This document shows positions 2,801 through 54,700 of a stretch of DNA of 64,000 nucleotides, one piece after another; the stretch's first letter is position 1, and every line of letters begins with the position of its first letter. A program made the position numbers and the translations under genes. The notes beneath the pieces were generated by a model. It had not been told where the DNA came from, did not search any database, and was given only the letters and a program-made list of their open reading frames with translations. This stretch comes from Mustelus asterias (Eukaryota), in the NCBI RefSeq assembly GCF_964213995.1, contig NC_135808.1, forward strand, positions 31,000,001-31,064,000. Direction: 5' to 3'.

Positions 2801-4906
2801 CCCCCTACACACAGACATGGCTGCCTGCTCACCTCTTGCCCCCATGGATCCGGATAATGCGGGTATCCAATCCCTCCATCCCTCCATCCCTTGAACATAC
2901 TGCCCTCACTGCTGCCCTGCAGAGAACGAGCATTGTGTTGACATGCATAACCCCAGCTTGTGATCATTCCCTCTCTTGAATCGGAGCCTTGAGTATTGCA
3001 CCCCCTAGACACAGCAGTTAACCGATTAGGAGCCCTGAATATTGCACCCACCCTACACACATCAGCCTATTGAATGGCCACCAATCAGCACCCCGAGGAA
3101 TGAATGACACTCAACTGAATGCAGCCTTCAAAATCTTTCACAAGTATTTTTTGCCAACGGGCCCTTGACTGGCCACGCTCACTGCACCTGCACTCCCCTA
3201 ATAAGAGCTTTATATACGCTGCAGGAATGGCCACACAGCCAGTCACGCCACAAAGATGGCTGCATGGAAACCTGCTCCCAGACTTTCAGAGGCCGACCAG
3301 GAGCACCTGCTGGATGCCGTGGAGGAAAGGTGTAATCGTCTGTTCCCTGGCCAGGGCACTAACCCAAGGGGTGCATCTGCTATGGCATTGCGGGAGGCGG
3401 CGGCAGAAGTGATGAATGCCAGGAGTCTGACACCACGCTCTGGCAGGCAGTGCTGCAAAACAATGTACGACCTTCTGCGAGCAGCAAGGGTGAGTGAGCA
3501 TCCCACTTGGAACCGCGCACATGCTTGGCACGGATCTCCAACTCTGCTTAGACACCTGAAGAGCATGCAACAAGTGACCTTACCCCAGAAGCAGAATCTA
3601 ACCCCTTCCCCTCACCCCTCAACGAGCACCCTTCAATGGTGACCGCTTTCCCTGAAACTGTCAGCACAACACCTGAGACACAGGCATGCATTGCGCACCA
3701 TGCACTGCAATATGCTTGCTAACTACCTTATGTTCCCACAGGAAAAGAAGATCCACAACGCATGGGAGACGACACAGACTGGTGGTGGGTGTGCCTGACC
3801 TGTGGCAGCTGACTGGCATGGAGGAGCGTGCCATGGAGCTGGGAGGGAGTGATGGGTCATCATGAATGGTCACTGACAGCCAGGTCAGCATACAGCATGC
3901 AAGTGAGCAGAATCATACCCTCAACCTTGGTCCTCCTGTTAGTAAGTGCGATGCTGCATGGAATGTTTTGTCTCCCCACCCCCTAATGTATGTTATTTTT
4001 TACAGGTCTGGACCCAGAGAAACTGAGCCCTTTGCGTGTTGACGCTGCCCCCGCTGCTCTGGAGCAAAATGCACATGACCCTCTGGATGACACCTTGGAG
4101 GGAGGCACTGAGGAATCCTCCGAGGACAGCACCACTAAAGCGTCACCAGCATGTACCACAGAACCCACTAACACAGATGATCACCACAGTGGGTACCTTT
4201 AATGCTGAGGCTTCTGAATCACAAGCTGGGGAGCACATCACAGCAGCTGATGCACATCAGGTGGAGGCGGTCACGTCCGAGGGCTCAGGGACACAGAGGT
4301 CTGCCGGAGGCCAGGATTCAGCTTTCCCCAAGCCAGCTGCTGGGCCTCTGGGTTTGTTCCTCCCAAGGCTTGTGGAGATTCAGCAGGGGAAGGGCTGTCA
4401 GCAAACATGCTGCTACTGCAAGGCTGCTTAGAGGAGTCAACCAGAATGCTGTTGCGGGAGGTCATGCCAACACAGCGTGAGGCCAAGGCCAACACTGCAA
4501 GGGTGGTGGCTGCAGTGGAATGTCTGGCTCATGGTTTTGTCCTCATGGGTGACAGGGTCCAGGCATCCTGCAGACATGACGGGCCATGGGCGAGTGTGTT
4601 CCAGCATCGAGGAGGCACAGCGTCCTATGGCTATGGGTGTCAGGGGCATGTGGGAGACATTGTTGGCCATGGCTGGGACTCTCACTAGCATTTTGGAGAC
4701 ACAGCAGGCAGTGGCTGTGAGCTTTGACAACTTAGCCCAGGCTCAGCAGCTACTGCTGAGGAGTTCCAGAGCTGGGTTGCTCACAGAATGATGTAGCGGA
4801 GGGGCTCCGGAATTTGGCCGAGTCTCAGAGGGCCAGGGCTGAGGGATCACACATCATGGAGCAGATGCATCTAGGCCTCCAGGACTGGCAGAGCCAGGTG
4901 ATGCTG

Positions 4907-5541: not shown

Positions 5542-6671
5542 TTATCGGCTTATGATGAAAGTAAGGAGGTGTGGGAGAGAGGGAAAGTTGGCCGATTGAA
5601 TAGGTAACTGGCTAACTGATCGAAGACAGATGGTGGTGGTGGATGGAAAATTTTCGGACTGGAGGCAGGTTGCTAGCGGAGTGCCATAGGGATCAGTGCT
5701 TGGTCCTCTGCTCTTTGTGATTTTTATCAATGACTTAGAGGAGGGGGCTGAAGGGTGGATCAGAAAATTTGCTGATGACACCAAGATTGGTGGAGTAGTG
5801 GATGAGGTGGAGGGCTGTTGTAGGCTGCAAACAGACATAGATAGGATGCAAAGCTGGGCTGAAAAATGGCAAATGGAGTTTAACCCTGATAAATGTGAGG
5901 TGATTCATTTTGGTAGGACTAATTTAAATGTGGATTACAGGGTCAAAAGTAGGGGTCTGAAGACTGCGGAGGAACAGAGAGATCTTGGGGTCCATATCCA
6001 CAGATCTCTAAAGGTTGCCACTCAAGTGGATAGAGCTGTGAAGAAGGCCTATAGTGTGTTAGCTTTTATTAACAGGTGGTTGGAGTTTAAGAGCCGTGGG
6101 ATTATGCTGCAACTGTACAGGACCTTGGTGAGACCACATTTGGAATATTGTGTGCAGTTGTGGTCACCTCACTATAAGAAGGATGTGGAAGCGCTGGAAA
6201 GAGTGCAGAGGAGATTTACCAGGATGCTGCCTGGTTTGGAGGGTAGGTCTTATGAGGAAAGGTTGAGGGAGCTAGGGCTGTTCTCTCTGGAGCGGAGGAG
6301 TCTGAGGGGAGACTTAATGGAGGTTTATAAAATGATGAAGGGGAAAGATAGAGTGAACGTTCAAAGACTATTTCCTCGGGTGGATGGAGCTATTACAAGG
6401 GGGGCATGACTGTAGGGTTCATGGTGGGAGATATAGGAAGGATATCAGAGGTAGGTTCTTTACGCAGAGAGTGGTTGGAGTGTGGAATGGACTGCCTGCA
6501 GTGATAGTGGATCAGACACTTTAGGAACATTTAAGTGGTTATTGGATAGGCACATGGAGCATACCAGGATGATAGGGAGTGGGATAGCTTGATCTTGGTT
6601 TCAGATAAAGCTCGGCACCACATCGTGGGCCGAAGGGCCTGTTCTGTGCTGTACTGTTCTATGTTCTATGC
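5542..6671 (+). mobile_element. Young 5'-truncated CR1 inserted antisense into another CR1
   Basis: RT motifs LGPLLFVIFINDL and FADDTK; (GTTCTAT)n tail; ATGC at both junctions; the host CR1 rejoins as ggcaagcatgccatatgcc. Confidence 0.92.
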
Positions 6672-8196
6672 CATATGCCTTATTCACTACCTTCTCCACC
6701 TGTAATGTCACCTTCAAGGATCTGTGGACTTGCACACCCAGGTCCCTCTGCGTATCTACACCCTTTATGGTTCTGCCATTTATCGTATAGCTCCCCCCTA
6801 CGTTAGTTCTACCAAAATGCATCACTTCGCATTCATCTGGATTGAGCTCCATCTGCCATTTCTTTGCCCAAATTTCCAGCCTATCTATATCCTTCTGTAG
6901 CCTCTGACAATGTTCCTCACTATCTGCAAGTCCAGCCATTTTCGTGTCGTCCGCAAACTTACTGATCACCCCAGTTACACCTTCTTCCAGATCGTTTATA
7001 TAAATCACAAACAGCAGAGGTCCCAATACAGAGCCCTGCGGAACACCACTAGTCACAGGCATCCAGCTGGAAAAAGACCCTTCCACTACCACCCTCTGTC
7101 TTCAGTGACCAAGCCAGTTCTCCACCCATCTAGCCACCTCCCCCTTAATCCCATGAGATCCAAACTTTTGCACCAACCTACCATGAGGGACTTTGTCAAA
7201 CGCTTTACTAAAGTCCATATAGACATCCAAGGCCCTTCCCTCGTCCACCATTCTGGTCACTTCTTCAAAAAACTCCACCAGGTTAGTGAGGCATGACCTC
7301 CCTCTCACAAAACCATGCTGACTATCGTGAATGATTTTATTCCTTTCTAAATGCACATACGTCCTATCTCTAAGAATCCTCTCCAACAACTTCCCTACCA
7401 TGGACGTCAAGCTCACCGGCCTATAATTTCCCGGGTTATCCTTCCTACCCTTCTTAAATAACGGGACCACATTAGCTATCCTCCAATCCTCTGGGACCTC
7501 ACCTGTGTCCAGTGACGAGACAAAGATTTGCGTCAGAGGCCCAGTGATTTCACCTCTCATCTCCCTGAGCATCCTGGGATAGATTCCATCAGGCCCTGGG
7601 GATTTGTCAGTCTTTATATTCCCTAAAAGACCTAACACTTCCTCCCTTGTAATGGAGATTTTCTCGAACGGGTCAACACTCCCCTCCGAGACACTCCCAG
7701 TCAACACATCCCTCTCCTTTGTGAATACTGATGCAAAGTATTCATTTAGGATCTCTCCTATTTCTTTGGGCTCTGAGCATAATTCCCCACTTTTGTCCCT
7801 GAGAGGTCCGACTTTTTCCCTGACAACCCTTTTGTTCCTAACGTATGAATAAAATGCCTTGGGATTCTCCTTAATCCTCTCTGCCAAGGACATTTCGTGA
7901 CCCCTGTTTGCCCTTCTAATTCTTCGTTTGAGTTCTTTCCTACTTTCTTTATATTTCTCCAGATCTCCCTCCATTTTTAGCTGCCTGGGCCGAACGTACG
8001 CCACTCTTTCTTTTTGACCAATCCCTCAATTTCCCTGGTTACCCACGGTTCTCGAATCCTACCCTTCCTATCCTTCTTTTTTACAGGCACATGCCTATCC
8101 GGCAACCCTAACAACTGTCCCTTAAAAGACTCCCACATGCCAAATGTGGATTTACCCTCAAATAGTCTCTCCCAATCAACAGCTGCCAATTTCTGC
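6672..8196 (-). mobile_element. CR1 LINE ORF2 (RT domain), 5' part of the interrupted copy
   Basis: KSPGPDGIYP, NYRPVSLTS, QHGF, DFSKAFDKVPH, GVPQGSVLGP and FADD in ORFs 7102-8004 and 6601-7092. Confidence 0.92.
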
Positions 8197-9235: not shown

Positions 9236-10420
9236 TCAAGGTGACCCTTGCTGCCCTTCCTTGCCGGTCACCTGCCAATGCCACCCGCTGTCTTTCCTCC
9301 AGCTCGTCATATGGCGGGATGCCCAGCTCACTCCCTCATCACTCCTCCTTCTCTTCCTCCTCCTCCTCCTCCTCCTGCTCCAGCTGGTCTCCCCGTTGCT
9401 GGGCGATGTTATGAAAAGTGCAGCAAATGATAATGGTGCGTGAAGCACGCAAAGGGTCATACTGGAGAGCCCTCCCCCCAGAGGGGTCCAAGCAGTGGAA
9501 CCGCATCTTCAGCAGGCTGATGCACCGCTCAATGATGGACCAGGTGGCTGCATGGGCCTCGTTGTAGCGGGTCTCTGCCTCAGAATGCCTCCGCACAGGT
9601 GTTACCTTAGCGGGTAACCCTTGTCACCTAGTAGCCTTCCTGGGAGCCTGGGCTGGTCTTCAAAGAACCCAAGGATGTCCGACTGCTGGATCACAAAGCT
9701 GTCATGGACACTCCCGGGGTGGCATACATCAATCTGCATGATCTTCATTGGATGGTCGCAGACAATTTGGACGTTCAGAGAGTGGAACCATTGGAGTTCA
9801 AAAATTGCTGTGGCCCTGCCTTGGGGGCCCACAAGGCAATGTGCATGCCATCCACTGCATCCTGCACATTCAGGATCCCGGTGATGGAGGCAAAGTCAAG
9901 GCCCAGGCCTTCTGCTGTGCAGGGCCCACATCCAGATTTATGAACTGCCCTGCCTGGGCAGAAAGGGCATCTGTGACCTGCTGCACACATCTGTGCATGG
10001 AGGCCTGGGAGATACCAGCTAGGTTGCCACTGGGAGCCTGGAATGATCCAGAGGTATAGAAATTGACGGCTGCCATCACCTCCACGTCCACAGGGAGCAG
10101 GTGGCTGCTGCTCACCTGAGGTGCAAGGTGTGAGAGTACCTCATGAATGTGTCACACCATGGTCTTGGACAGGAGCAGCTGGCGACGGCTGACAGGGCTC
10201 AAAGGAATTGTGGGGCCTGTAGCTGCTTGCCCTCAGCACCCTCCGCCTTCTGTACACCCTCTCGGGAGCCTGCGCACCCACGTCCTGGCCCTCAGCGGCA
10301 GCCCCCTGTCCTCCTTCCTGAGGATCTGGTGGTGGTTGCTCTTGCAGTGGTCTCTCCACGCCTGCCACCTCCTGAGCCATTGCCTCCTTCTCCTCCTGCA
10401 CTCCTGCTGCCACCAACATG
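9236..10420 (-). pseudogene. Harbinger DDE transposase (HARBI1-like), frameshifted
   Basis: Across frames: FYTSGSFQ..GISQASMHRCVQQVTDAL, AVDGMHIAL, FHSLNVQIVCD, PGSVHDS, LLGDKGYPL, YNEAH..IIERCISLLKMRFHCLD and CCTFHNIA. Confidence 0.9.
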
Positions 10421-11829
10421 GCCAGCTGCAGATCGAGCAAACCGAGATCCCTCTGCACAGTGGAGTTTGGAAAGAGCATGGAATGACGGATTACTCTCAT
10501 TGGCTTCATAAATCCAGCACCAACTTAATCCCTCACTTGGGCTAGAATCCCCACTTGTGGTAGCTGGCAACCCCACACAATGCATGGTGCCATGCATGGC
10601 CCGATTAGGGTTGTGTGAGATTCCCATCATGGCAAATGCTGGCACAGATTATGCAGGTCGGTGCCCAGTGACAGCAGACTCCATGCAGTCCACGTCTGAA
10701 CCGGCCTGGAGCAGCAGCTGCTTCATCTGCTTAGGCCTCAGTCAGCACATGGTGCGCTCCTCCCTTAGCCCGGAACACCAGCACTTAGTCGAGTCCCTGA
10801 CCACACCTCGCAGCAAGACACTGCCACTGCAAAGTGCCGTGGAGGGGGAGGGTGAGCCAGAGGTGGATACATTATTAATAAGCAAAGAAGTGGTAGGTTT
10901 TGGGGGGGAGGGATGACGCAGATTTGAGGTTTTCATCAGTGGAACAAAGAGCCTATTTATTGGTAGAGCAGGTTCGAGTTACGAATGGCCTACTCCTTCC
11001 TCCTTTTTCGTAAGTTTGCATGTTTTTGTGACTGGAAGGTTATTTTTTCATTGAGTTCCTGGGGGCACAGCATTAGATCACACCTTTTTTGGGAAATGTA
11101 ACAACAATTTACTTTTTTGCGTAGGATTCGTGAGCGTAAATAAAAAATAAAATGAAGAAGAAAGCTGCAGATTGAATCAGCTGGACACTTGGTGCAAACG
11201 CACTGAATAATGAAGATTCAATGCGGAATCGTGGGAGGCAATTCACACACGGGAAGCCAAGAAAGAATGGAAATGCACAATAAGTGAAAGGATAAAGCGA
11301 AGTATAGAGGAACCGAGCGACCTTGAAGAACATGCCGACGGATACTTGAATGTGCTGTCGCAAGCAGGTAAGGTTAGGAAGGTGTACATTCGACTTGCCT
11401 TTATTAGCCAACATACAGAATAGAAGATCTCAGGGATCACTCTGGACCTCTATGGAAAATAAACATTTAGGCTAAAAATGAAGCACTGCCATCATTTCCG
11501 GTCCCCTGACCACAGGAAAGATGACTTGCAATTGAAAACATACACAGAGGTTTTACGCAGATGCTGAATTTTAGTTTCGATGAGTGCTTGGATAGGTTAG
11601 GGTCAGTTCATTTAACAGTATGGAGTGTAGAGAATGGATAGGAGGACCTAATCCTCTGGGTAGAGGTGTCCATCACAATAGGGTATCGATGTAGGGTAAG
11701 CTGCAGTCAGTTTGGGTGAGATTGAAGCAGAATTATTTCATGCAGATCAAATCAGCCATGTAGGCTCGAGGGGCCGACTGATCCTTCTCCTAATACTTAT
11801 GTGCATACACAGAGGGTGCGCACCATTTA

Positions 11830-15327: not shown

Positions 15328-16328
15328 TTAGGGCCTCAACTATTTACCATTTATATAGAGGAGGGGACTGAGTGTAGGGTAACAAAGTTTGCAGACAACA
15401 CAAAGATAAGTGGAAAAGCGAATCGTGTGGAGGGCGTAGAAGGTCTGCAGAGAGATTTGGACAGGCTGAGTGAGTGGGCGAGGATTTGGTAGATGGAGTA
15501 TAACGTTGACAAATGCGAGGTTATTCACTTTGGAGGAAATAAGAGCAAATTGGATTATTATCTAAATGGAAAGAAATTACAACATGCTACTCTGCAAACG
15601 GACCTGGGGGTCCTTGTGCATGAGACGCAAAAACCCAGTCTGCAGGTGCAACAGGTGATCAAGAAGGCAAATGGGATATTGGCCTATATCGCAAGGGGGA
15701 TCGAATATAAAAGCAGAGATGTCTTGCTGCATCTGTATAGGGCATTGGTGAGGCCGCAGCTGGAATACTGTGTGCAGTATTGGTCCCCTTATTTGCGGAA
15801 GGATATATTGGCCTTGGAGGGAGTACAAAGAAGGTTCACCAGGTTGATACCAGAGATGAGGGGTGTTGATTATGAGGAGAGACTGAGCAGATTGGGTTTG
15901 TACTCGTTGGAATTTAGAAGGCTGAGGGGGGATCTTACAGAGACCTATAAGATAATGAAGGGGCTGGATAGGGTAGATGTGGAGAGATTATTTCCACTTA
16001 GAAAGGAAGCTAGAACTAGAGGGCACAGCCTCAAAATAAAGGGGGGTAAGTTTAGGACAGAGTTGAGGAGGAACTTCTTCTCTCAGAGGGTGGTGAATCT
16101 CTGGAATTCTCTGCCCACTGAAGTGGTGGAGGCTACCTTATTGAACATGTTTAAATCACGGATGGATGGATTCCTGATCGGTAAGGAAATTAGGGGTTAT
16201 AGGGATCAGGCGGGTAAGTGGAACTGATCCACTTCAGATTAGCCATGATCTTATTGAATGGCGGGGCAGGCTTGAGGGGCTAGATGGCCTACTCCTGCTC
16301 CTATTTCTTATGTTCTTATGTTCTTATG
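15328..16328 (+). mobile_element. CR1 3' fragment inserted in the Gypsy element
   Basis: ORF 15493-16227 (LVRPQLEYCVQYWSP, FFSQRVVNLWNSLP); (TTCTTATG)n tail. Confidence 0.9.
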
Positions 16329-24824: not shown

Positions 24825-24894
24825 ATGGAACGTGCAATACTTACTCAGGTACAAGAAATTTATTACCCTATCCTTGCACTACTTGGTGTTCCTG
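24825..24894 (+). CDS. GPR139-like GPCR, coding exon 1 (N-terminus and first half of TM1)
   Basis: MERAILTQVQEIYYPILALLGVP+G then a consensus gtaagt donor; 70 nt, phase 1, joins exon 2 in frame (VP-A-NLLTIVIL). Confidence 0.88.
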
Positions 24895-25011
24895 GTAAGT
24901 TATATTCTCAGTAAGCATTTAGCTTTACCAGTATTTTACTGTACGAGCATTTTCTGCTTGTGTAATTATGACATAGTATCAAATTGCCTGTTCATTAAAA
25001 TTAATGAAATA

Positions 25012-30175: not shown

Positions 30176-31274
30176 CATACTACCAACGTATCATTTTCTG
30201 ATTGACAAGATGGAACGATTGGTGTGCCATAGCGATCAATACTGGGCCTCAAACTTCCACAATTTAAGTAAATTGCTTGGATGAAGGAACCAAAGGTACG
30301 GTTGCTAAACTTGCTGGTAAAACAAAAAGGTAGGAAAGTGAATTGCAAAGGGGACATAGCAGGCTACAAAGGGATGTAAAGTTGTTAACTGGGTTGGCAA
30401 AGAGTAGGCAATTAGAGTATCATGTAGAAAAATGTGAAATTGTCCATTTTGGCAGGAGAAATATAAAAGGAGCAAGTTACTTAAATGAGAGATTGCAGAG
30501 GGATTTGGGTGTGCTAGCATATAAATCATGAAAGCTTAACGTGCAAATATTGCAAATAATTGAGAAAACTAATAGGATGCTGTGCTTTATTGTGAGTAGA
30601 ATTTAATATGAATGTAAGCAGGTTATGCTTCAGTTGTACAGGCTATTGTGAGACAGCATTTGGAGTATTATGTACAATATTGGTCACCTTCTTCAAGGAA
30701 AGGTGTAAACAAAATCAGTTCAGAGGTTTTATGAGACTGACATCGAGAATGGACACTTTTCCTTTGTAGGAAAGTTAGACAGACTAGGCTTAGAACTGAT
30801 CCTTCAAGTCTTTGGGGATTGACTGGATTGTACTTCAGGGAACTAACAGGAACTTGATGGGCTAAAGTATCTCTGTACTGTAAAGATTTCTGGCTCTAGA
30901 AGTGTTGTTTTTGAAATATTGACAAATAGAGCTTGAGAGAATTTGTAAACAAGTTGTTAATTTTATGAAGATACTGCAATAAAATATGAATTCATTGATT
31001 TGTCTAAAGTTGCCTGAAGGGAAAAGATAATAAATGAGAGCTCGATTTCAGTATCAGGACACCTTTTTAGATTTTTTTTCGTGGTAATTCCAGCACTAAA
31101 TGTTTCGCGAATGGTTAAATAGTTATGTTCCCTCAGAATTTCTCCTTTTAACTAGGCAGAGGGTAAATGTTTTGAGTGAAGAAAAACTCCAGACTAATTG
31201 TTGCAATTTATCATGTGCAATTTATTTTTTCAAATCTATATTGCTGATTTATTTCACTGCTTCTGCAATTTCAG

Positions 31275-32173
31275 CCAACCTTTTAACCATTGTGATCCTT
31301 TCCCGGGGGAAATGTGGCCTCTCCAAATGCATCACTGTTTACTTGGTTTCCATGGCAGCGACAGATCTACTTGTCCTGATTGTTGACGTGATCCTGTATG
31401 AGATGAATGAAATCTATTTTCCAGATTCCTTCCTGGACATCACTCCTGTCTGCAGTCTGAATTTCTTCTTAATTTTTGCTTCTATTGAATGTTCCGTCTG
31501 GCTAACTGTAGCTTTCACCTTTGACCGATTTGTTGCCATTTGTTGGCAAAAATTAAGAACACAATATTGCACTGAAAAAACTGCGGGAGTGGTTGTAGCG
31601 ACAATATGTGGGCTGAGCATTCTGGAAAACTTCCCGATTTACTTTACGTTTAAACCTAGCATAATAATCGACAATGTATTATGGTTCTGCAATGTAAAGT
31701 TAAGCCTCTATACTGAACCTATATGGGTTACATTTTTGTGGGTTGACATCGCTTTAATGCCTTTTATTCCCTTCCTCTTGATTCTGATGCTCAATGGCCT
31801 GACCATCAGGCACATTGTGCTGACAAGCAAGATTAGAAGAAGTCTCCGGAACAGTGACAACGACCCAGAAATGGACAACCGGAGGAAATCCATTGTTTTA
31901 CTGTTGGCCATATCTGGCAGCTTTATACTATTATGGTTGGTAACTTTTATTCATTATATCTGTGTACAGATTATGGAAATTCAATACCTGCACACAGACT
32001 ATAGTAATCCTTTCACCATTATGGAGCAAACAGGATATATGCTGCAGCATTTGAGTTCCTGCTCAAATACCATTATTTACGCAGTGTCCCAGACTAAATT
32101 CAGAGAGGAGTTAAAGAACCTGTTTAAATATCCAGTAACTCTAATTATTAAGAGAAATGATGTTATGCTCTGA
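31275..32173 (+). CDS. GPR139-like orphan class A GPCR, coding exon 2 (TM1b-TM7 and C-tail); spliced product 322 aa
   Basis: Acceptor gcaatttcag at 31274; NLLTIVILSRGKCGLSKCITVYLVSMAATDLLV; TM3 Cys and SVWLTVAFTFDRFVAIC; ECL2 Cys (WFC); TM5 PFIPF; TM7 SSCSNTIIY; helix 8 FREEL. 70+899=969 nt open to TGA. The first 58 aa of ORF 31100 are intronic. Confidence 0.93.
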
Positions 32174-33974: not shown

Positions 33975-34781
33975 CCAGAAATGCATTAATTCCGCATTGT
34001 GCTCATGTAATATGTAGCAGCAGTTTATACAATTGTAGATTTGAATTTGCAATGTTTCCTTCAATATTAAGGGAAGGAATAATCGTTAATAAAATGATGG
34101 AAGCATAAAGCGTGTGCTACGTGTTTATACAAGTGCCCTCGATTATGTCATAAAACGATTGATTTTCTGATTACTTTCAATGTGTCCTTGGTTCCAATTC
34201 AACTCTGCCGTTTAATCCTCTCGCAGGTATTGCTTAGACAGCATTGTACTCTAGAAAATGAAAAATAAGTGTTAGACAGTATCGGGGTGATTGCGCGGAG
34301 CAGTGTAATGAATGAAGTCATGTCTATTTCCAATTTTTGATGGTTCAGCGAGATAGCTCTTTAGTTAACTGCACCAGTGTGATTACCAAAGTGGTCGCTT
34401 CCCAATCTTTCAGTCAATTCGATCAAGCTGTTCAGTTTAGCACATTCTTCTGTGAGAATATGTCTGAGATCGTGCTAAGTGGGGATAACTGAAACGTAGG
34501 CGAACATAATGCCCTGTGAAGACTCTGTCAGCTAACACCCTGAGGTGGCCGCACATTTGCGAACAAGTTGATACTCTACCCCTTTTGGACCCGGCAATGT
34601 TGATCATAATTCTCCCCACCACAACCAGAACATCAGGCCCTTCCCACTTCCATTGTCTATGCCATCAACCCCAATGTCAGTCATCATTTGGAACACTTGT
34701 CCACTCCTCCATCAACCGAGTCCCTAACTATCGCCCACAACCCTGACTCGCCCTTTCCAGTTACATGTCTCCATGCAAAGT

Positions 34782-40080: not shown

Positions 40081-40819
40081 TATGCTGCCCCAAATCCCCA
40101 CCCTAGCTCACCTCGCCCCTCTGTTGGTTCCCCTATACCTGCCTGCCCTAATAGTCACAAAAAGGTAGTTGGATGAGATGTATTCGAGACAGCCGGTGAA
40201 AAAAAATCATTCATTCATCTTACACTATCAAATACTGAAATGTCCCCATGCCACTCCCCAACAGCCACTTTTACAGATTTCCCTGCTCCCGTTCGGGTCG
40301 GTTGATAAACTAGTGACAGATCGCTTGGCGAGCATGTTGTGTTATTCACCAAGACCTACTTCACGTCCGTAATCCATTGAAAGAAAATTCTAATCCAGAG
40401 TCACTCTAAAGAGGTCACAAAGATTTCAAAACACCCGCTTAAAACATGGGATACAGGTTCTTCAGTCCATTCAGTTTGCACAGTCATGTCTTCTTCAGAT
40501 GAACAAATATTCCTAATCGACCTGCCCTGATCCAAGGTTCCCTTAACTCCCTTTTCCTTCATCATCTTGACCAATCTAATCTTAAATCACATTCTTACGG
40601 TATAGAAGGAGACCATTCAGCCCATTGTGTCTGCAAAGGCTCTCCAAACGAGCATCATGACTTAGTTCCATTCCCATGCCCCTGATCTTTGGACCTCAGG
40701 TAATCATCTAATGCGATCTTGAATGTTGCAATTGAACCGACCTCCACCGCATTTCCAGGCAGTGCATTCCAGACCCCAACCATTCTGTGTCTGATAAAGA
40801 TGATTTTCTCATGTCACAC

Positions 40820-42557
40820 TTGCTTCTTCCGCAAACCCACAAGAGATGGGTGAGATCCTAAATGAGTATTTCTCATCAGTATTCACTGTTGAGAAAAGCA
40901 TGGATCTTAGGGAACTTTTGGAAGCAAATAGTGATGTCTTGAGGAGCGTACATATAACAGAGAAGGAGGTGCTGGAAGTCTTAAAGCGCATCAAGGTAGA
41001 TAAATCCCCAGGACCTGATGAAGTCTATCCCAGGACACTGTGGGAGGCCAGGGAGGAAATTGCGGGTTCCCTAGCAGAGATATTTGAATCATCAATAGTC
41101 ACAGGTGAGGTGCCTGAAGATTGGAAGGTGGCAAATTTTGTGCCTTTGTTTAAGAGTAGCTGCAGGGAAAAGCCTGGGAACGACAGGGCGGTGAGCCTCA
41201 CAGCTGTAGTGGGTAAGTTGTCAGAAGGTATTTTGAGAGATAGGATCTACAGGCATTTAGAGACGCAGAGACTGATTAGGGACATTAGCATAGCTTTGTG
41301 AGTGGAAAATCATTTCTCACAAATTAGATTGAGTTTTTTGAAGGGTAACCAAGAGGGCAGTGCAGTTGATGTTCTCTACATGGACTTTAGCAAGGCCTTT
41401 GACAAGTACCACATGGTAGGTTGTTGCATAAGGTTAAATCTCACAGGATCCAGGGTGAGGTAGCTAAATGGATACAAAATTGACTTGATGATAGAAGATA
41501 GAGAGTGGTTGTAGAGGGTTGTTTTTCAAACTGAATGCCTACGACCGGTGGTGTGCCTCAGTGTTGGGTCCACTGTTATTTGTCATTTATATTAATGATT
41601 TGGATGACAATTTAGTAGGAATGGCTAGTAAGTTTGCAGATGACACCAAGATTGGTGCCATAGTGAACAGTGAAGAAGGTTATCTAGGATTGCAACGGGA
41701 TCTTGATCAATTGGGCCAGTGGGCTGACGAATGCAGATGGAGTTTAATTTAGATAAATGCAAGGTGATGGATTTTGGTAGATTGAACCAGGGCAGGACTT
41801 ACTTAGTTAATGGTAGGGTGCTGGGGAGAGTTACAGAACAAAGAGATCTGGGGGTGCAGGTTCATAGCTCCTTGAAAGTGGAGTCACAGGTGGACAGGAT
41901 AATGAAGAAGGCTTTTGGCATGCTTGGTTTCATTGGTCAGAACATTGAAGACGGGAGTTGGGACGTCTTGTTGAAATTGTACAAGACATTGGTAAGGCCA
42001 CACTTGGAATACTGTGTACAGTTCTGGTCACCCTATTATAGAAAGGATATTATTAAACTAGAAAGAGTGCAGAAAAGATTTACTAGGATGCTACTGGGAC
42101 TTGATGGTTTGAGTTATAAGGAGAGGCTGGATAGACTGGGTCATTTTTCTCTGGAGCATAGGAGGCTTAGGAGTGATCTTATAGAGGTCTATAAAATTAT
42201 GAGGGGTATAGATCAGCTAGATCATCAATATCTTTTCCCAAAGGGAGGAGAGTCTAAAACTCGAGGTCATAGGTTTGAGGTGAGAGGGGAGAGATACAAA
42301 AGGGTCCAGAGGGGCAATTTTTTCACAGAGGGTGGTAAGTGTCTGGAACAAGCTGCCAGAGGTAGTAGTACAAGCGGGTACAATTTTGTCTTTTAGAAAG
42401 CCTTCAGACAGTTACATGGGTAAGATGGGTACAGAGGGATATGGGCCAAACATGAGCAATTGGGACTAGCTTAGGGGTTAATAAAAAGGGCAGCATGGGC
42501 AAGTTGGGCCAAAGGGCCTGTTTCCATGCTGTCAACCTCTATGACTCTATGACTATC
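40820..42557 (+). mobile_element. CR1 LINE, 5'-truncated and frameshifted
   Basis: ORFs 40846-41301, 41519-41752 (FADDTK) and 41731-42396; (CTATGA)n tail. Confidence 0.9.
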
Positions 42558-43277: not shown

Positions 43278-43382
43278 CTCTTCGCCTTCTCCATTTTATA
43301 TATATGAAAACAATGACTGCCAGTAACACCACCACTACTGCGACAATCAGTCCTATGTGTTTGTCTTTCTTCATCTTTCCTT
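43278..43382 (-). CDS. MHC class I-like gene: connecting peptide/transmembrane exon
   Basis: tatttcag|(E)GKMKKDKHIGLIVAVVVVLLAVIVFIYIKWRRRR+G|gtaagg; 105 nt, phase 1-1; hydrophobic span followed by a basic stop-transfer; in frame with alpha3. Confidence 0.88.
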
Positions 43383-44439
43383 CTGAAATATATTGAAAGG
43401 ATTTATTAAATATAATTTTCTATGCAAATAGGCAATCCTATATTACACTTCTGACACTGTTCATGTTATATGATGATAGAGGTTTTAATGTGAATAGTAT
43501 CCCATTACCATTTAGTTCATCATATATTATTGTATTTAGGAGGTAGGACATGGAGGAAGAGTATGTAGCCTGATGGGTATTCATAAAGGCAAACTGAAGA
43601 CGTCAGCAAAGCCTGCTGGTTAAAAGAGCTAACTCTATATGAAGCTAAGTACTGTGAGAGCAGCAAAGAATAAATACAGGAATCGATTGGACAGTGGCCC
43701 TTGCGTGTCGTATTCCTGAGAGAATTACGATCCGTGACAGAGGCATAACACTTGAGCACTCATGACCAAGACCACAGTAATTGATTAGTGTCTGTCCTGT
43801 GAATATGTTACTGGAAGCATGGTCTGTGGCAGCAACATCTGTATGAGAAGAAGAGATTCAGAGACATTGACAACAGTGACCCGGGATCACCCACTGCAGA
43901 ACAAGCAGCAAGACACCAAGTTTGGGACTCTGGGACATCAGAACAAAGCCCATCAGTAGGGGAATCCAATCAGTTGGCCTCACCTCACATAGGATTTCTA
44001 ATTCCAAGTCGTGAGTTTGGATATTTTGTGAAGCTTTCATACCCTTTGAATACCTTGTGGAGAATGAAGTAGGTCAGCGGTTAGTTACTTTGTAATTAAC
44101 GAAGTCAGAGTTTAGACGTTTTGTGCATAATGAAGTAAAGGCAGAGGTTGAATAATGTGTATCTAATGAAGTTAGATGCCTGGCATGCTAAAGTTTTGTA
44201 GTACAGTTTGATACTTTTGTGGTAACATGGTAAAGTCATAGGAGATTTGTTGTGCAATACTTTGAGAGATTGAGTGTCTTTGTCCACAGCATCAGTTGAC
44301 CCAAATTCGAGAGCAATGAGTAAGAATTGGGATTTGTGAGGAGAGGAAGGAGGGAAAAGAAAGGACTGGCAAAAGAGTAAGCAAGTCAGAGAGAGAAAAT
44401 AGGAATGAGTAAGTGCCACATTATAGGAAGGATGTGATT

Positions 44440-44912
44440 GCACTAGAGAGGGTGCAGAGAAGATTCACCAGGATGCAGTCTGGGCTGGAGGGTCTGACCT
44501 ATGAGGAAAGATTGGATAGGCTGGCGTTGTTTTCCTTAGTACAGTGAAGATTCAGAGGGGACCAGATAGAAGTGTATAACATTATGACAGACACTGATAT
44601 GGTAGGTAGGGAGGTACTTTTTCCATTAGTAGAAGGGTCAATAACAAAGAGGCATAGATTTAAGGTCAGAAGTAGAAGAGTGGAGTTGAGGAGAAACAGA
44701 GGAAGCTGGGAGTCTGGAACTCATTGCCTTAAAGGGTAGTTGGGTCAGAAACTCTCCTAACATTTAACAAATTATTCGATATTCACTTACGCTACCATAA
44801 CCTCCAGGGCCTTGGGCCAAGCGCTAGAAAATGGGTGTAGTGCAGTGAGCTCTTTGTTGACCAGCATGGACACGATGGGCCAAATAGCCTCATTCTGTGC
44901 TGTAAATATCTA
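44440..44912 (+). mobile_element. Old CR1 3' fragment (MHC intron)
   Basis: gagagggtgcagagaagattcaccaggatg...; CR1 3' UTR. Confidence 0.75.
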
Positions 44913-45272
44913 TAAATGTATAGGTGGGGGTAGGAGCTGATGGCTGGAAGGGAGGTAGCTAGGAAAGGTAAGATTCAACTGGCCAGGATGTTTCTCTATT
45001 TAATGTTGGAATATTATCATCCGAAATCCATCCACAACTCTGCGCATTATGTGCAGATCCACAGCTTGAAATGTTCATGGCATTCGAAGGGTGACAAGGT
45101 GAGTTACCCTGCGAGTTACCCAGCAACATAGTGGAAGACAAAGAGAGGGAGGGATATATGCAGGAGGCTGGTCAGTCTTTGTTTTTGTTCAGTACTGAAC
45201 TGACAATCAACACAATGCTAAACATTCCCATGTGCTATGATATAACATTAGGTGCGACCCGCTCACTGCCAA

Positions 45273-45468
45273 TCGGCGGCACGGTGGCACAGTGGTTAGT
45301 ACTGCTGCTTCACAGTGCCAGGGTTGCCCCTTAATGCCAGAGGGTTTAACAGGGTAAATATATGGGATTACAGGGATAAAGATTGGGTGGGATTGTTTCC
45401 GGTGCAGGCTCATTGGACCAAATAGCCGCCTCCTGCACTGTAGGAATTCTATGATTCTATTCTATGAA
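45273..45468 (+). mobile_element. Internally deleted V-SINE
   Basis: Head ggcggcacggtggcacagtggttag joined directly to the tail; (TTCTA/TGA) end. Confidence 0.75.
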
Positions 45469-46275
45469 TCTATCATCAAAGTGACACGTTCACAAATTGG
45501 TGCAGAAACTTTGAAACCTTGACAGCTCTCAGCAGTTTCAAAGTTAGCTGACAGACAGACGGGTAGAAACAAAGATGGAAGTGTGTAAAATGCAGCGAAA
45601 TGAGCAGCTCGTCATGAATGCATTTAAGATGGAGATAGATAGTTTCTTGGTTGGTAAGGGGATCAAAGGTTACGGGGAAAAGGCGGGAGAATGGGATTGA
45701 GAAACATATCAGCCATGATCAAAAGGCGGAGCACACGTGATGTGCCGAACGGCCTAATTCTGTTCTTATATCTTATGGTCTTATGAGCTGGTCAATGTGA
45801 TCGCACGATTCAAAGCATTGTCCCCTGGGAATGGGGGGGGGGGGGGGGGGGGCCTTTCAGCAACTTTCACAGCCAACTGCAGACAGTGGAGAATAATGTT
45901 TCCGAGAACCAAAAGATATCCGAGGCAGACAGTGGGATACCAGTACATGTGGTGAATGTAGTGCTCCACAGGCTAACCATGGGCCTCACTATGGAGGGTG
46001 AAGTCTACGCTGCCTACGAAATCTGCAAAACTACCTTGCCCAAGAAGGAACTCAGCTCTCGAACATACCTAACTCGATGTTTCTTCCAAAGCCTCCCCCC
46101 CCCCCCCCTCCGTCAAACCGTTAAGCGGTAAAATCTCAGGGGACTGGACAGCTCCCTGTTTTTGTCTATTTGGTGATAAAGCTTGTATGACAAAGAAATA
46201 ATGTGAGTTATCGAAAAGAAAATGGTTGGGTCCGCACATGCTGGACTACAACATCATCAGGAAATGTGTCCTCAC

Positions 46276-46542
46276 CCCAAGCAACAGTCTTCCCACCCGG
46301 CAAGCTGCTGTGTTCAATGTGACAGCAATACTGCTTCCCATCATACGGGTCAAACTGGAGGGTTGTAGTCAGTTGGTAGGTTCCGTCTTCATTGGGCAGC
46401 AAGCCGGTAGATTTGGTCTCGGGGACTTGTAATCCATTCTTCAGCCAGGTCACATTGATGGACTGTGGGTGAAATCCACGCACGGCGCAGTGTAGGAACC
46501 AACCAGGCCCTTCCCTGGCAGTGACTGAAACCTGGGGAATAA
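46276..46542 (-). CDS. MHC class I-like gene: alpha3 (Ig C1) exon
   Basis: ctctcatccag|(V)IPQVSVTAREGPGWFLHCAVRGFHPQSINVTWLKNG...LLPNEDGTYQLTTTLQF..YCCHIEHSSLPGGKTVAW+G|gtgagg; 267 nt; C1-set C-x-V-x-GF-x-P, W and YxCxxxH motifs. Confidence 0.95.
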
Positions 46543-46689
46543 CTGGATGAGAGACTGAGAATTACTTTCAAGTAATGTGCAAACCGGACATTGTACTATG
46601 AAATCGAGTGGGAAGCTTAGCTTTTTGCTTCCAATGTGAAACAGGCAACATCGAATCAGCCATCTGTTATAAGACGCAGAGAACGTCTC

Positions 46690-47290
46690 CAATGTCATAG
46701 AATCATAGGGTGCAGAAAAGGCTCTTCGACCCATCAAATGTGCATCGACACGTGTGAAGCACCTGACCTCCCACCTAATCCCATTTACCATAACTTGGCC
46801 CATAGCCTTGAATGTTACGCCGTGTCATGTGCTCATCAGATATTTTCTAAAGGATGTGCGGCAACTCGCTCTCCCACCCTCCCAGGCAGTACATTCCAGA
46901 CCCTCACAATCCCCTGGCTAAAAGGTGTATCCTCACCTTCCCACTAAACCTTCTGCCCCTCACCTTGAACTTGTGTCCTCTTGTGACTTACTCTTCAGCT
47001 AAGGGGAATAGCTGCTCCTTAGCCACTCGTAATCTTGTATACTCAATCAGGTCGCAGCTCAGTCTCTCTGCTCCAACAACCCAAGCCTATCCGGCCTCTC
47101 GTCACAACCTAAATGTTCCATTCTGGGCAACATCCTGGTGAATCTCCTCTGCACGCCTTCCAGTGCAATCACATCCTTCCTGTAATGTAGCATCCAGAAC
47201 TACACACAGTCCTCTAGTGGCATCCTCACCAAAGTTCTATACAACTCTAACATGACTTTGCTGCTTTTGTAATCATTGCCTCATCTATTG
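46690..47290 (-). mobile_element. CR1 3' fragment filling most of the alpha2-alpha3 intron
   Basis: catagaatcatag tail; caacatcctggtgaatctcctctgcac core. Confidence 0.75.
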
Positions 47291-47339
47291 TATTCAAACA
47301 GCCGGCTTATAACTGACCACCATGCTGCCCTCAACTTAC

Positions 47340-47615
47340 CTTTTCTGGTGAGGGATGTGTTTCCAAAAGCATAGTATGTCCACCACAGATTCACACAATC
47401 CTTTTCGAGCAGGCTCTTGAAATAAAGGCTCATGTCTTTCAGTTTATCCCACTTCGCTTTTAATTCCTCAGCGACTGGATCATGTGCAGTCCAAACCAAG
47501 GTGTTTATATCAAAGCTCAAGATGTACCTCCCATCGAAAGCGAACTTCAAAATCCCACTGCTCGCTTTGTTACCATTCAGCTCACAGCCAAACAGTCCTT
47601 GTACGTAATGGATAC
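47340..47615 (-). CDS. MHC class I-like gene: alpha2 exon
   Basis: ccatttcag|(S)IHYVQGLFGCELNGNKASSGILKFAFDGRYILSFDINTLVWTAHDPVAEELKAKWDKLKDMSLYFKSLLEKDCVNLWWTYYAFGNTSLTRK+G|gtaagt; 276 nt; H93, Q96, GC101, D119-G120, W133, K146-W147 and C164 (HLA numbering by eye). Confidence 0.95.
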
Positions 47616-47908
47616 CTGAAATGGCAATTCAGTCGATGGATGCTTAAATCTTTCTCACAGTTATTTACATCAAATGTGAGAATTTCTCCTTCACTCAATG
47701 TGCATTGTCTTTCGATGGTTATTAAAGCTGTAATAGGTACACAAACCCTTATGCAATACAACACTGTCCCCAGGTCCAGTATATCTAGAATTGGATTCAA
47801 ATAAAGATGAGCGCAAATGGAGAGAAGTGTGAAGTGATCCATTTTCGGAGGAAAACTATGGAAAGACATTGTAAGATAAAGGATTCACTCTAATGGGGGT
47901 GCAGAAGT

Positions 47909-48205
47909 GCACGGTGGCACAATGGTTAGCACTGCTGCCTCACAGTGCCAGGGACCTGGGTTCAAATTCCAGCTTGGATCACTTGCTGTATAGAGTCTGC
48001 ACGTTCTCCCCATGTCTGCGTGGGTTTCCTGTGGGTGCTCCGCTTTCCTCCTACAGCCTGACAGACATCCTGGTCAAATGAACTGGCCATGTTGAATTCT
48101 CCCTCAGTGTGCCCAGACAGGTCCCGGAGTGTGACGACTTGGGGACTTTCACAGTAACTTCATTGCAGTGTTAACGTAATCCTACTTGTGAAATTAATAA
48201 ATCAA
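47909..48205 (+). mobile_element. V-SINE (MHC intron)
   Basis: A/B boxes, V core. Confidence 0.82.
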
Positions 48206-48271
48206 CGTAAACTAGAATCAGAAGGACCTGGGTGTTTTGTCCATTAGTTATGAAAGTGGCAGGACAGGTTA

Positions 48272-48826
48272 CATAGATTCATAGTATCCCTACAGTGCAA
48301 ATGGAGTCCATTCAGTCCATCGAGCCTACACCAACAACAACCCAGGCACTATCCCCACAATACCATGTAACTGAAAAATCTCAGTCGGTCTGACAGCATC
48401 TGTGGGAAGAGAATAGAGCCAACGCTTCATGTATAGATGGCCCTTTGTCAGAACTGTTCTGAAGAAAGAAAACCGTTCTGATGAAGGGTCATCCAGACTC
48501 GAAACATTGGCTCTATTCTCTCCTCACAGATGCTGTTAGACCTGCTGAGATTTTGCAGCATTTTCTGTTTTAGTTTCAGATTCCAGCATCCATAGTATTT
48601 TTCTTTTACCTCACGTATTTACCCTGCTAATACCCCTGACACTCAAGGGCCAATTGAACACAGCCAATCAACCTAACCCACCCAACTTTGAAGCGTGGGA
48701 GGAAACCAGAGCACCCACAGGAAATCCACACAGGGAGAACATGCAAACTGTACACAGAAAGTCACTGAAGTCGGGTCCCTAGCACTGTAAGGTAGCAGTA
48801 CTAACTATTATGCCACCGTGCCGTCC
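48272..48826 (-). mobile_element. V-SINE interrupted by a palindromic Penelope-like terminal-repeat insertion (about 48371-48608)
   Basis: SINE tail 48272-48370 and head 48610-48826; between them, inverted arms at about 48371-48454 and 48475-48560. Confidence 0.75.
48475..48511 (+). ncRNA. Minimal hammerhead-like motif (Penelope-derived), partly decayed
   Basis: GTT-CTGATGA-A-GGGTC-ATCCA-GACTC-GAAA-CATT-GGC; core boxes and stem II intact, stem III palindrome imperfect. Confidence 0.6.
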
Positions 48827-48829
48827 ATC

Positions 48830-49436
48830 ATGGGAGCAGTAAATAACGCAGATGGTATCTTGGGTTTTATTGATGGGAGGATAATATACAAGAGGTTACA
48901 CTAAATTTGCTGATGTAACCATTTTGGCCTCAGTTTCCAGCTCTGGCACAATACTTTGAATACATTCGAGATGGTGCAGAAAATATTACAAGAATGATTC
49001 GAGGGATGAAGAGATTCAATTATGAAGATAAATTGGATAAGTTTGAACAGTTTAATCTGGGAAAATGGTTGAGAGGAAATTCCAAATCACAAGAGGTCTG
49101 GACAGAATAGATAGGGAGAAGCTCTTCTCGCTGCTGGAAGGATCCAAAAGGAAAGGGCACAGATTTAATGTAATTAATAAAGAAGCAAGGAGAAACTTTT
49201 TCATGGAATGAGTTGTTAGGCGTTGCAATGCTCTGTCTGAGAGCATGGTGAAGGTGGGTTCAACTGAAGCATTCAAAGAGGAATGAGACTACTTTCTGAA
49301 AAGGAAGCAAGCGCAGGGTTCTGGAGAGAAGTGTTTCAGGGGGATTGGTGCCAGATGAGTTACTTAATCGGAGTGCCGTTGCTGAAACGATAGGCCAAAG
49401 GACCACCTTCTGTGCAATAACCATTCTGTGATTCCA
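48830..49436 (+). mobile_element. Old CR1 3' fragment
   Basis: Decayed LEMVQK..TRMI / FFME.VVR.CN-type coding remnants and 3' UTR. Confidence 0.65.
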
Positions 49437-49574
49437 TGAGAAGCAAACGAGAGTGTGAGAATGTCAACCGCATGGAAATTCAGGCAGGTAGTATAATGGG
49501 TGACTCACTAACCCCCAAAGTTAATAAAAATGCCCCTGTCGGTCACTCCATTGACCTGAAATTAATTAACTCAC

Positions 49575-49835
49575 TTGCTGTTTGGTTTTCCTCCCGCAAC
49601 CAACTGTCAAACTGTCCCTTGATGATTCCGTGGAAACCAGCTTCAGTGATGGTGCAATGTTCCCAGTAGTTCTTGTTAAATGCTTCCGCCATCCATTTTT
49701 GCCTTGGAACAATTGTGCTGATAGTGTTGTCATAATAATCTGTCTCGCAGCCATCCAAAAGCCCTATAACACTGTACTGTGGGAGATCCGCAAGCCCGTG
49801 GCTCAGGATGTACTGATAGAGCAGAGAGTGAGACG
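49575..49835 (-). CDS. MHC class I-like gene: alpha1 exon
   Basis: ttgtcctag|xSHSLLYQYILSHGLADLPQYSVIGLLDGCETDYYDNTISTIVPRQKWMAEAFNKNYWEHCTITEAGFHGIIKGQFDSWLREENQTA+A|gtgagt; 261 nt; H3, Y7, G26, D29, PRxxWM, Y59-W60 and the N86 sequon NQT. Confidence 0.95.
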
Positions 49836-51721: not shown

Positions 51722-54700
51722 AGAACATAGAACATAGAACAGTACAGCACAGAACAGGACCTTCGGCCCATGATGTTGTGCCGAGCTTTATCTGAAACCA
51801 AGATCAAGCTATCCCACTCCCTATCATCCTGGTGTGCTCCATGTGCTATCCAATAACCGCTTAAATGTTCCTAAAGTGTCTGACTCCACTATCACTGCAG
51901 GCAGTCCATTCCACATCCCAACCACTCTCTGCGTAAAGAACCTACCTCTGATATCCTTCCTATATCTCCCACCATGAACCCTATAGTCATGCCCCCTTGT
52001 AATAGTTCCATCCACCCGAGGAAATAGTCTTTGAACATTCACTCTATCTATCCCCTTCATCATTTTATAAATTCATTCTCCCCTCAGCCTCCTCCACTCC
52101 AGAGAGAATAGCCCTAGCTCCCTCAACCTTTCCTCATAAGACCTACCCTCCAAACCAGGCAGCATCCTGCTAAATCTCCTCTGCATTATCGCCAATGCTT
52201 CCACATCCTTCTTATAGTGAGGTGACCAGAACTGCACACAATATTCCAAATGTGGTCTCACCAAGGTCCTGTACAGTTGCAGCATAACCCCACGGCTCTT
52301 AAACTCCAACCCCCTGTTAATAAAAGCTAACACACTATAGGCCTTCTTCACAGCTCTATCCACTTGAGTGGCAACCTTTAGAGATCTGTGGATATGGACC
52401 CTAAGATCTCTCTGTTCCTCCACAGTCTTCAGAACCCTACCTTTGACCCTGTAATCCACATTTAAATTAGTCCTACCAAAATGAATCACCTCACATTTAT
52501 CAGGGTTAAACTCCATTTGCCATTTTTCAGCCCAGCTTTGCATCTTATCTATGTCTCTTTGCAGCCTACAACAGCCCTCCACCTCTTCCACTACTTCACC
52601 AATCTTGGTGTCATCAGCAAATTTACTGATCCACCCTTCAGCCCCCTCCTCTAAGTCATTAATAAAAATCACAAAGAGCAGAGGACCAAGCACTGATCCC
52701 TGTAGCACTCTGCGAGCAACCTGCCTCCAGTCTGAAAATTTTCCATCCACCACCACCTTCTGTCTTCGATCAGACAGCCAGTTACCTATCCAATCGGCCA
52801 ACTTTCCCTCGATCCCACACCTCCTTACTTTCATCATAAGCCGACCATGGGGGACCTTATCAAACGCCTTACTAAAATACATGTATATGACATCAACTGC
52901 CCTACCTTCATCAACACACTTAGTTACCTCCTCAAAAAATTCAATCAAATTTGTGAGGCATGACTTGCCCTTCACGAATCCGTGCTGACGATCCCGGATT
53001 AATCCGCATCTTTCTAAATGGTCATAAATCCCATCCCTAAGGACTTTTTCCATCAATTTACCAACCACCGAAGTAAGACTAACCGGTCAATAATTACCAG
53101 GGTCATTTCTATTCCCTTTCTTAAACAGAGGAACAACATTCGCCACTCTCCAGTCCTCTGGCACCATCCCCGTGGACAGTGAGGACCCAAAGATCAAAGC
53201 CAAAGGCTCTGCAATCTCATCCCTTGCCTCCCAAAGAATCCTAGGATATATTTCATCAGGCCCAGTGGACTTATCGACCTTCAGTTTATTCAAAACTGCC
53301 AGTACATCCTCCCTCCGAACATCATAAAACATTGATGTCATATACATGGATTTTAGTAAGGCGTTTGATAAGGTCCCCCATGGTCGGCTTATGATGAAAC
53401 TGAGGAGGTGTGGGATAGCGGGAAAGTTGGCCGATTGGATAGGTAACTGGCTGTCTGATCGAAGACAGAGGGTGGTGGTCGATGGAAAATTTTCGGATTG
53501 GAGGCAGGTTGCTAGCGGAGTGCCGCAGGGATCAGTGCTTGGTCCTCTGCTCTTTGTGATTTTTATCAATGACTTAGAGGAGGGGGCTGAAGGGTGGATC
53601 AGTAAATTTGCTGATGACACCAAGATTGGTGGAGTAGTGGATGAGGTGGAGGGGTGTTGTAGGCTGCAAAGAGACATAGATAGGATGCAAAGCTGGGCTG
53701 GAAAATGGCAAATGGAGTTTAACCCTGATAAATGTGAGGTGATTCATTTTGGTAGGACTAATTTAAATGTGGATTACAGGGTCCAAGGTAGGGTTCTAAA
53801 GATTGTGGAGGAACAGAAAGATCTTGGGGTTCATATCCACAGATCTCTAAAGATTGCCACTCAAGTGGATAGAGCTGTGAAGAAGGCCTGTAGTGTGTTA
53901 GCTTTTATTAACAGGGTTTAAGAGCCGTGGGGTTATGCTGCAACTGTACAGGACCTTGGTGAGACCACATTTGGAATATTGTGTGCAGTTCTGGTCACCT
54001 CACTATAAGAAGGATGTGGAAGCGCTGGAAAGAGTGCAGAGGAGGTTTAGCAGGATGCTGCCTGGTTTGGAGGGTAGGTCTTATGAGGAAAGGTTGAGGG
54101 AGCTAGGGCTGTTCTCTCTGGAGCGGAGGAGGCTGAGGTTAATAGAGGTTTATAAAATGATGAAGGGGATAGATAGAGTGAACGTTCAAAGACTATTTCC
54201 TCGGGTGGATGGAGCTATTACAAAGGGGCATAACTATAGGGTTCGTGGTGGGAGATACAGAAAGGATATCAGAGGTAGGTTCTTTATGCAGAGAGTGGTT
54301 GGGGTGTAGAATGGACTGCCTGCAGTGATCGTGGAGTCAGACACTTTAGGAACATTTAAACAGTTATTGGATAGGCACATGGAGCACACCAGGATGATAG
54401 GGAGTGGGATAGCTTGATCTTGGTTTCAGATAAAGCTCGGCACAACATCATGGGCCGAAGAGCCTGTTCTGTGCTGTACTGTTCTATGTTCCATCTATTT
54501 CCTCCAGCCTATTAGCCTGTAACACCTTCTCTTCCTCAAAAACATGGCCCCTCTCCTTGATGAACACTGAAGAAAAGTATTCATTCATCACCTCGCCTAT
54601 CTCTACTGACTCCATACCCAAGTTCCCACTCCTGTCCTTGGCCGGCCCTAACCTCACCCTGGTCATTCTTTTATTCCTCACATAAGAGTAAAAGGCCTTG

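Follow-up and report, generated by a model that had tools for sequence, protein, structure and literature searches.

In cartilaginous fish the nonclassical (class Ib) molecules UFA and UGA of the major histocompatibility complex (MHC) are called CD1-like in a 2025 review (PMC12562908), section 2.1 of which describes them as single- or low-copy and MHC-linked; the same part of the review states, as a personal communication, that lipids like those of CD1d are suggested as ligands of both by crystal structure and mass spectrometry. UFA and UGA share the class Ib region as well as the CD1-like description (PMC10751288, PMC12562908), and the relevant part of PMC10751288 describes this region beside brd2 and the beta2-microglobulin (beta2m) gene and calls the orthology between CD1 and UFA hard to assess. 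For UGA a structure has been deposited (PDB 9CH4, “Crystal structure of shark nonclassical MHC CLASS I, UGA”, released 2026-03-18). Here we analyse a 64,000-nucleotide (nt) window of Mustelus asterias, to which coordinates refer (positions outside it are given on contig G000:C8), with a class I gene on its minus strand that is almost certainly, judging from sequence comparison, an ortholog of elasmobranch UGA. The original prediction presented this gene as the best candidate for a new system in the window and listed UBA, UCA, UDA, UEA and UFA as nonclassical shark lineages; UGA, the lineage to which the gene actually belongs, was missing from that list. As UGA is already named and crystallised, the Mustelus gene is a further ortholog and not a new system.

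The gene corresponds to P0001, a generically named NCBI class I model of 330 amino acids. Its best match among the PDB chains was 9CH4_A (E 7e-128; 67% identity over 267 columns), the next unfused class I chain following at E 2.6e-48. By eye, the three domains of 9CH4 are the rows labelled Gcirratum_UGA in the parts of Supplemental File 10 of PMC10751288 covered here, and the protein P0013, which is 55% identical to P0001, equals the skate row Lerinacea_UGA of that file apart from a single residue of alpha1 and three residues of alpha2. Out of 2054 candidates a whole-protein search returned 18 proteins: P0001 itself and 17 relatives from 12 shark and ray genera with identities of 51-75%. Separated by domain, P0001 shares 40-74% (alpha1), 51-76% (alpha2) and 57-82% (alpha3) identity with these UGA relatives, and at most 42% (n=128), 41% (n=157) and 49% (n=150), respectively, with segments outside UGA and the sister group described below.

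The domain trees, which were calculated under LG+G4 with no mixture model from chosen segments (52 of 185, 53 of 156 and 45 of 178), used P0013 as the UGA anchor and were built without 9CH4 and without named CD1, MR1 and W-category chains. In each of them the 16 UGA rows form one clade, whose support is weaker in alpha1 (86/61) and alpha3 (94/66) than in alpha2 (99/98). P0001 nests beside catshark and basking-shark proteins, with the ray proteins set apart. Genome exons resembling UDA (P0042, P0043), UBA and UCA/UEA form clades separate from UGA in the alpha1 and alpha2 trees; these labels and that of UFA were assigned by eye against the covered rows of Supplemental File 10 (PMC10751288), the UFA label also by best PDB match. 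The UFA-like alpha1 domain sits on a long branch and joins UGA and its sister gene with a support of 98/86.

Compared with the nurse-shark (9CH4) and skate UGA, the Mustelus gene agrees in clade (skate), in being single-copy and in its linkage to the MHC. It shares 30 of 39 groove positions with 9CH4 (by eye) and differs at positions 24, 33, 34, 45, 80, 84, 95, 124 and 143, of which E84 and D34 are the notable differences, the rest being divergence at the species level. UFA is much more distant. The alpha1 domain of the Mustelus protein matches PDB 8GM8, which we take by eye from the rows of Supplemental File 10 to be nurse-shark UFA, with E 1.6e-11 and 9CH4 with E 1.2e-41. An assignment of the gene as UFA ortholog was rejected since alpha1 favours 9CH4 by 30 orders of magnitude and since the genome holds a UFA-like gene of its own (L035, C8:32.24 Mb; best match 8GM8, E 7.1e-18).

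Classical class I molecules hold the peptide termini by a set of anchors consisting of Y7, Y59, Y/R84, T143, K146, W147, Y159 and Y171. In P0001, numbered manually with the HLA-A2 row in a published alignment as reference, H3, Y7, D29, Y59, N86, H93, Q96, C101, D119, K146, W147, C164 and Y171 are kept, and the changed positions are E84, Y122, I123, L143, M152, F156, L159 and L167, so that all residues called in the original prediction hold against the HLA-A2 row. The shark classical class I structure PDB 6LUP, presumably UAA according to a comparison by eye with Supplemental File 10, is 33% identical to the Mustelus protein and resembles it in domain and exon plan, structural residues and the N86 glycan site. 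In contrast to the classical molecules, the Mustelus protein lacks R84, T143, Y159, W167, D122 and an aromatic residue at position 123; R84, T143, Y159 and W167 are all present in the three classical-like proteins used for comparison. Membership in classical class Ia was therefore rejected, the full anchor set failing at E84, L143 and L159 and, in addition, at L167.

The conservation of these residues was followed in 13 aligned UGA proteins, chosen out of 18 by leaving aside models that were partial, fused or extra copies. Invariant in all 13 are Y9, Y22, Y59, Q77, G97, F99, L114, Y122, K146, W147, M152, Y155, F156, L159, L160 and D163; position 143 is F, L or M, and position 167 is L in 11 of the 13. 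The remodelled groove which had been ascribed to this gene is thus mostly a signature of the lineage, with G97, F99, Y122, M152, Y155, F156 and L159 present in all 13 aligned orthologs. E84 is private to the Mustelus copy, the other 12 carrying K, Q or R. Over 39 groove positions, which were chosen from the HLA-A2 structure, the mean hydropathy of P0001 amounts to 0.86 and that of the 13 UGA proteins to 0.29-0.94, whereas five proteins of classical-like or UDA type lie between -0.53 and -0.01; as a measure of ligand type this value is crude and suggestive only. An AlphaFold model built on an alignment of 14 rows was of poor quality (mean predicted local distance difference test score 64.6, predicted template modelling score 0.50, alpha1 residues 30-75 below 50) and served for the retrieval of PDB titles, not for groove measurement; its structural matches, near ties between 9CH4 (Z 16.3, root-mean-square deviation 9.0, 206 aligned residues) and class II, ZAG and chicken CD1-1 (Z about 15), were not used.

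We consider it likely that this single-copy ortholog, probably paired with beta2m, displays lipids in its hydrophobic groove and is CD1-like in function. The UGA product would associate with beta2m as its ortholog does: 9CH4 contains three UGA heavy chains together with three beta2m chains, and Y122 is consequently no bar to pairing in nurse shark. For the Mustelus protein pairing is likely, with H3, D29, Q96 and D119 kept. The hydrophobic groove would then hold lipids. By analogy, the tyrosine motif of the tail would drive an internalisation of the AP-2 type, lipids would be exchanged in endosomes before the molecule recycles to the surface, and the complex would be recognised by T cells of the innate-like type or by some other invariant receptor. 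According to the part of PMC9499830 concerned, CD1b-d reach endosomes via AP2 and the tail of CD1d carries a canonical YxxPhi motif. Such a motif is found in nine of 16 UGA models, a match in P0014 that sits before the membrane helix being excluded from the count, and in Mustelus it is a membrane-proximal YNAV at the C-terminus. Recycling of UGA through endosomes, as suggested by this analogy, seems somewhat favoured, and a lipid or lipid-like ligand is probable. With tetrapod CD1 the gene product would share the hydrophobic groove, the pairing with beta2m (of the ortholog) and the short YxxPhi tail.

Several observations weigh against this interpretation. The statement on lipid binding by UGA, which suggests the ligand, is second-hand, being a personal communication within the review (PMC12562908), and no primary paper on UGA was found in the literature searched, which left most subscription journals outside its coverage. 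The lineage retains half of the anchors for the peptide termini (Y59, K146 and W147 in 13 of 13 proteins, Y7 and Y171 in 11 of 13 each), the groove still contains charged or polar side chains (D34, E67, Q77, D163), and a UBA-like protein reaches a groove hydropathy of 0.45, within the UGA range. The Mustelus UGA retains Y7 and Y59, whereas the chicken and human CD1 rows in the covered part of the supplement of PMC10751288 lack both. It further differs from CD1 in keeping K146, W147 and Y171 and in lying in the MHC. Among the PDB sequence matches MR1 and classical chains are placed above CD1, which is missing from the top 60. The tail motif is missing from seven of the 16 UGA models, whose predicted last exons differ.

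Table 1. Exons of the UGA gene of Mustelus asterias (window coordinates unless a contig is named).
Feature	Length (nt)	Position	Strand	Remarks
Exon 1, leader	67	G000:C8:31068372-31068438 (outside window)	-	exact match to P0001 residues 1-22; phase-1 GTAAGT donor
Exon 2, alpha1 domain	261	49575..49835	-	ag/gt junctions; E 1.2e-41 to 9CH4_A
Exon 3, alpha2 domain	276	47340..47615	-	Pfam MHC_I E 2.9e-12; E 1.7e-31 to 9CH4_A
Exon 4, alpha3 immunoglobulin C1 domain	267	46276..46542	-	Pfam C1-set E 7.5e-19
Exon 5, connecting peptide, transmembrane helix and basic stop-transfer	105	43278..43382	-	ag/gt junctions
Exon 6, cytoplasmic tail, tyrosine YxxV motif and stop	17	34234..34250	-	residues E-Y-N-A-V-stop

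The exon structure of the gene is given in Table 1. The four exons for alpha1, alpha2, alpha3 and the transmembrane segment were confirmed from the window sequence with the predicted lengths, ag acceptors, gt donors and phase-1 junctions, and they splice into a single open frame. The span of 43278..49835 assigned to the gene placed them correctly and proved incomplete, as it omits the leader and the tail exon. The leader exon lies 18,536 nt upstream of the alpha1 exon and 4.4 kb past the window edge; candidates for it within the window were poor and were rejected. The tail exon is separated from the transmembrane exon by an intron of 9,027 nt, and possible polyadenylation signals follow it (ATTAAA at 34216, AATAAA at 33222). 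The joined six exons, spanning about 34 kb in total, translate exactly into P0001 and its stop, and a protein search with alpha1 returned five proteins among 19 candidates with P0001 on top (100% identical). Alpha1 alone gave no Pfam match at a threshold of 0.001 and matches the alpha1 domains of solved class I structures. Upstream of the ATG a regular-expression scan detected two CCAAT-type boxes and no match to an interferon-stimulated response element, a kB site or a TATA box. In its genomic sequence the gene is intact.

UGA is a single-copy, MHC-linked gene in the Mustelus genome. Searches with alpha1, alpha2 and alpha3 detected no second copy: the next-best genome match reached 41% in alpha1 (69 matches of 77 candidates), 36% in alpha2 (57 matches of 81 candidates) and no more than 49% in alpha3 (74 matches, 150 of 377 candidates being scored). 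All alpha1 and alpha2 matches are located on contig C8. The UFA-like gene and a UDA-like gene at 32.28 Mb lie about 1.2 Mb from UGA, and UCA/UEA-like genes lie at 32.3-33.6 Mb. The check for synteny with the MHC called for by the original prediction was positive, since a beta2m gene (33.79 Mb), a gene encoding a BET domain (33.87 Mb), which from its position would be BRD2, and class II alpha genes (34.27 and 34.54 Mb) lie 2.7-3.5 Mb from UGA on the same contig. This layout agrees with the class Ib region described in the relevant part of PMC10751288.

Other class I genes were observed on the same contig. A large UBA-like cluster at C8:21.6-24.8 Mb contains repeated blocks in which exons recur in numerous identical copies, reflecting either recent segmental duplication or a duplication in the assembly, and outlying class I-like genes are located at 3661151-3663119, 40135660-40146110 and 43405470-43411967, one of them about 27 Mb from UGA. 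In other species, three database copies of UGA each are present in a sawfish (P0012, P0014, P0017) and a sawshark (P0007-P0009); the alpha1 domain of the sawfish copy P0017 is strongly diverged (40% identity to P0001).

The main rival to a lipid ligand is the presentation of lipopeptides or acylated amino acids by the UGA ortholog, as in chicken YF1*7.1, with the acyl chain in the groove floor and a short peptide or polar head held by Y7/Y59/Y171 or K146/W147. The lineage-wide conservation of half of the terminus anchors beside a hydrophobic floor would suit such a mode, and the PDB titles 9EB2-9EB6 provide the precedent of YF1*7.1 with N-myristoylated amino acids and peptides. However, YF1 is merely 27-29% identical to P0001, and the lipids reported for UFA and UGA in the section of the review concerned are comparable to those of human CD1d (PMC12562908), so that we regard this mode as unlikely. 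Somewhat less probable still is a role of UGA in binding a limited range of hydrophobic peptides, or a role without presentation, for example as receptor ligand or in transport, like HFE, FcRn and ZAG. The retained K146/W147 and Y7/Y59/Y171 are compatible with it, as is the slightly higher conservation of the groove columns (0.82 vs 0.75 in the rest; one-sided p 0.03, neither columns nor species being independent), which fits any fixed ligand; the replacement of Y159, T143, W167 and Y/R84 and the second-hand lipid evidence (PMC12562908) speak against it. The intact state, the nonclassical character and the hydrophobic groove proposed in the original prediction are confirmed, and the non-peptide ligand suggested there is probable.

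Two further explanations concern the gene itself, and both are very improbable. That it represents a new, unnamed class I lineage might be thought from its automatic annotation, in which P0001 and its relatives bear only generic class I names, and from the scarce description of UGA in the literature searched; its identity to the named UGA structure, its nesting among UGA orthologs, with the alpha2 clade best supported, and its single copy refute this. A recently silenced pseudogene, which the original prediction would have accepted if a leader exon were missing, loses ground as the leader exon exists. Six open exons with canonical junctions, including leader and tail, the retention of all lineage-invariant groove and structural residues and the status as sole UGA copy found in the genome likewise oppose silencing.

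In the neighbourhood of UGA a rhodopsin-family seven-transmembrane receptor gene (window 31100-32170, plus strand; Pfam 7tm_1 E 1.4e-22; possible first exon near 24825-24902) faces the 3' end of UGA at a distance of about 2 kb from its stop. The skate model P0018 fuses UGA to a receptor 58% identical to this one, which suggests that the neighbourhood is old; the fusion itself is probably a read-through or a prediction artefact. Introns and flanks are filled with what we take to be reverse-transcriptase fragments of long interspersed nuclear elements (LINEs) and fragments resembling short interspersed nuclear elements (e.g. 5690-6406 plus, 7105-8025 minus, 15493-16224 plus, 40804-42393 plus, 52448-54306), and 3205-4800 and 9240-10650 look like pieces of a Harbinger-type DNA transposon.

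A second intact-looking class I gene (P0166; C8:31145954-31163742, minus strand, loci L051-L052) was observed 105 kb upstream of UGA in the same orientation, with alpha1 at C8:31154382, the transmembrane exon at 31146160 and, at 31163742, an exon resembling a leader that is absent from the database model. The first exon of this model resembles LINE-derived sequence, and an inverted look-alike of the leader-like exon is located at C8:31167843. The alpha1 domain of P0166 has nine relatives with identities of 72-88% in sharks and a sawfish (10 proteins including itself among 49 candidates). These proteins form a clade of their own in all three domain trees (100/99-100), which is sister to UGA in alpha1 (99/91) and alpha2 (98/96) and not in alpha3. 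Their groove hydropathy (1.11-1.59 in eight proteins) lies above that of UGA. The groove of P0166 carries F7, H59, M63, M67 and C99 and keeps D122, the N86 glycan site is absent, and the nine models of the group with a membrane helix all lack the tail tyrosine. In the sawfish gene table, read by gene name only, one P0166-type gene is followed by three UGA-like genes in the same order.

In the parts of Supplemental File 10 covered (PMC10751288) no row matched the P0166 lineage and no name for it was found, and a chimaera row labelled UGA there looks by eye nearer to the P0166 group in alpha3; the lineage may already have been counted as a second UGA. That UGA and P0166 represent an ancient tandem pair, with P0166 as a separate, apparently unnamed class Ib lineage of sharks and rays, is a tentative proposal and at present rather doubtful. 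The P0166 sister lineage is nevertheless the more novel item of this analysis and a lead worth following.

UGA is relevant to the question whether the presentation of lipids arose as early as that of peptides, and its ortholog set reveals groove residues fixed across sharks and rays which provide a usable list for mutagenesis. If the P0166 lineage is undescribed, it would give cartilaginous fish another class I family of the lipid type and allow a direct test of CD1-like specialisation. If the tandem pair is real, it would combine, in the oldest jawed vertebrates, an endosome-recycling lipid presenter (UGA) with a non-recycling one, a division of labour paralleling the split of the CD1 isoforms.

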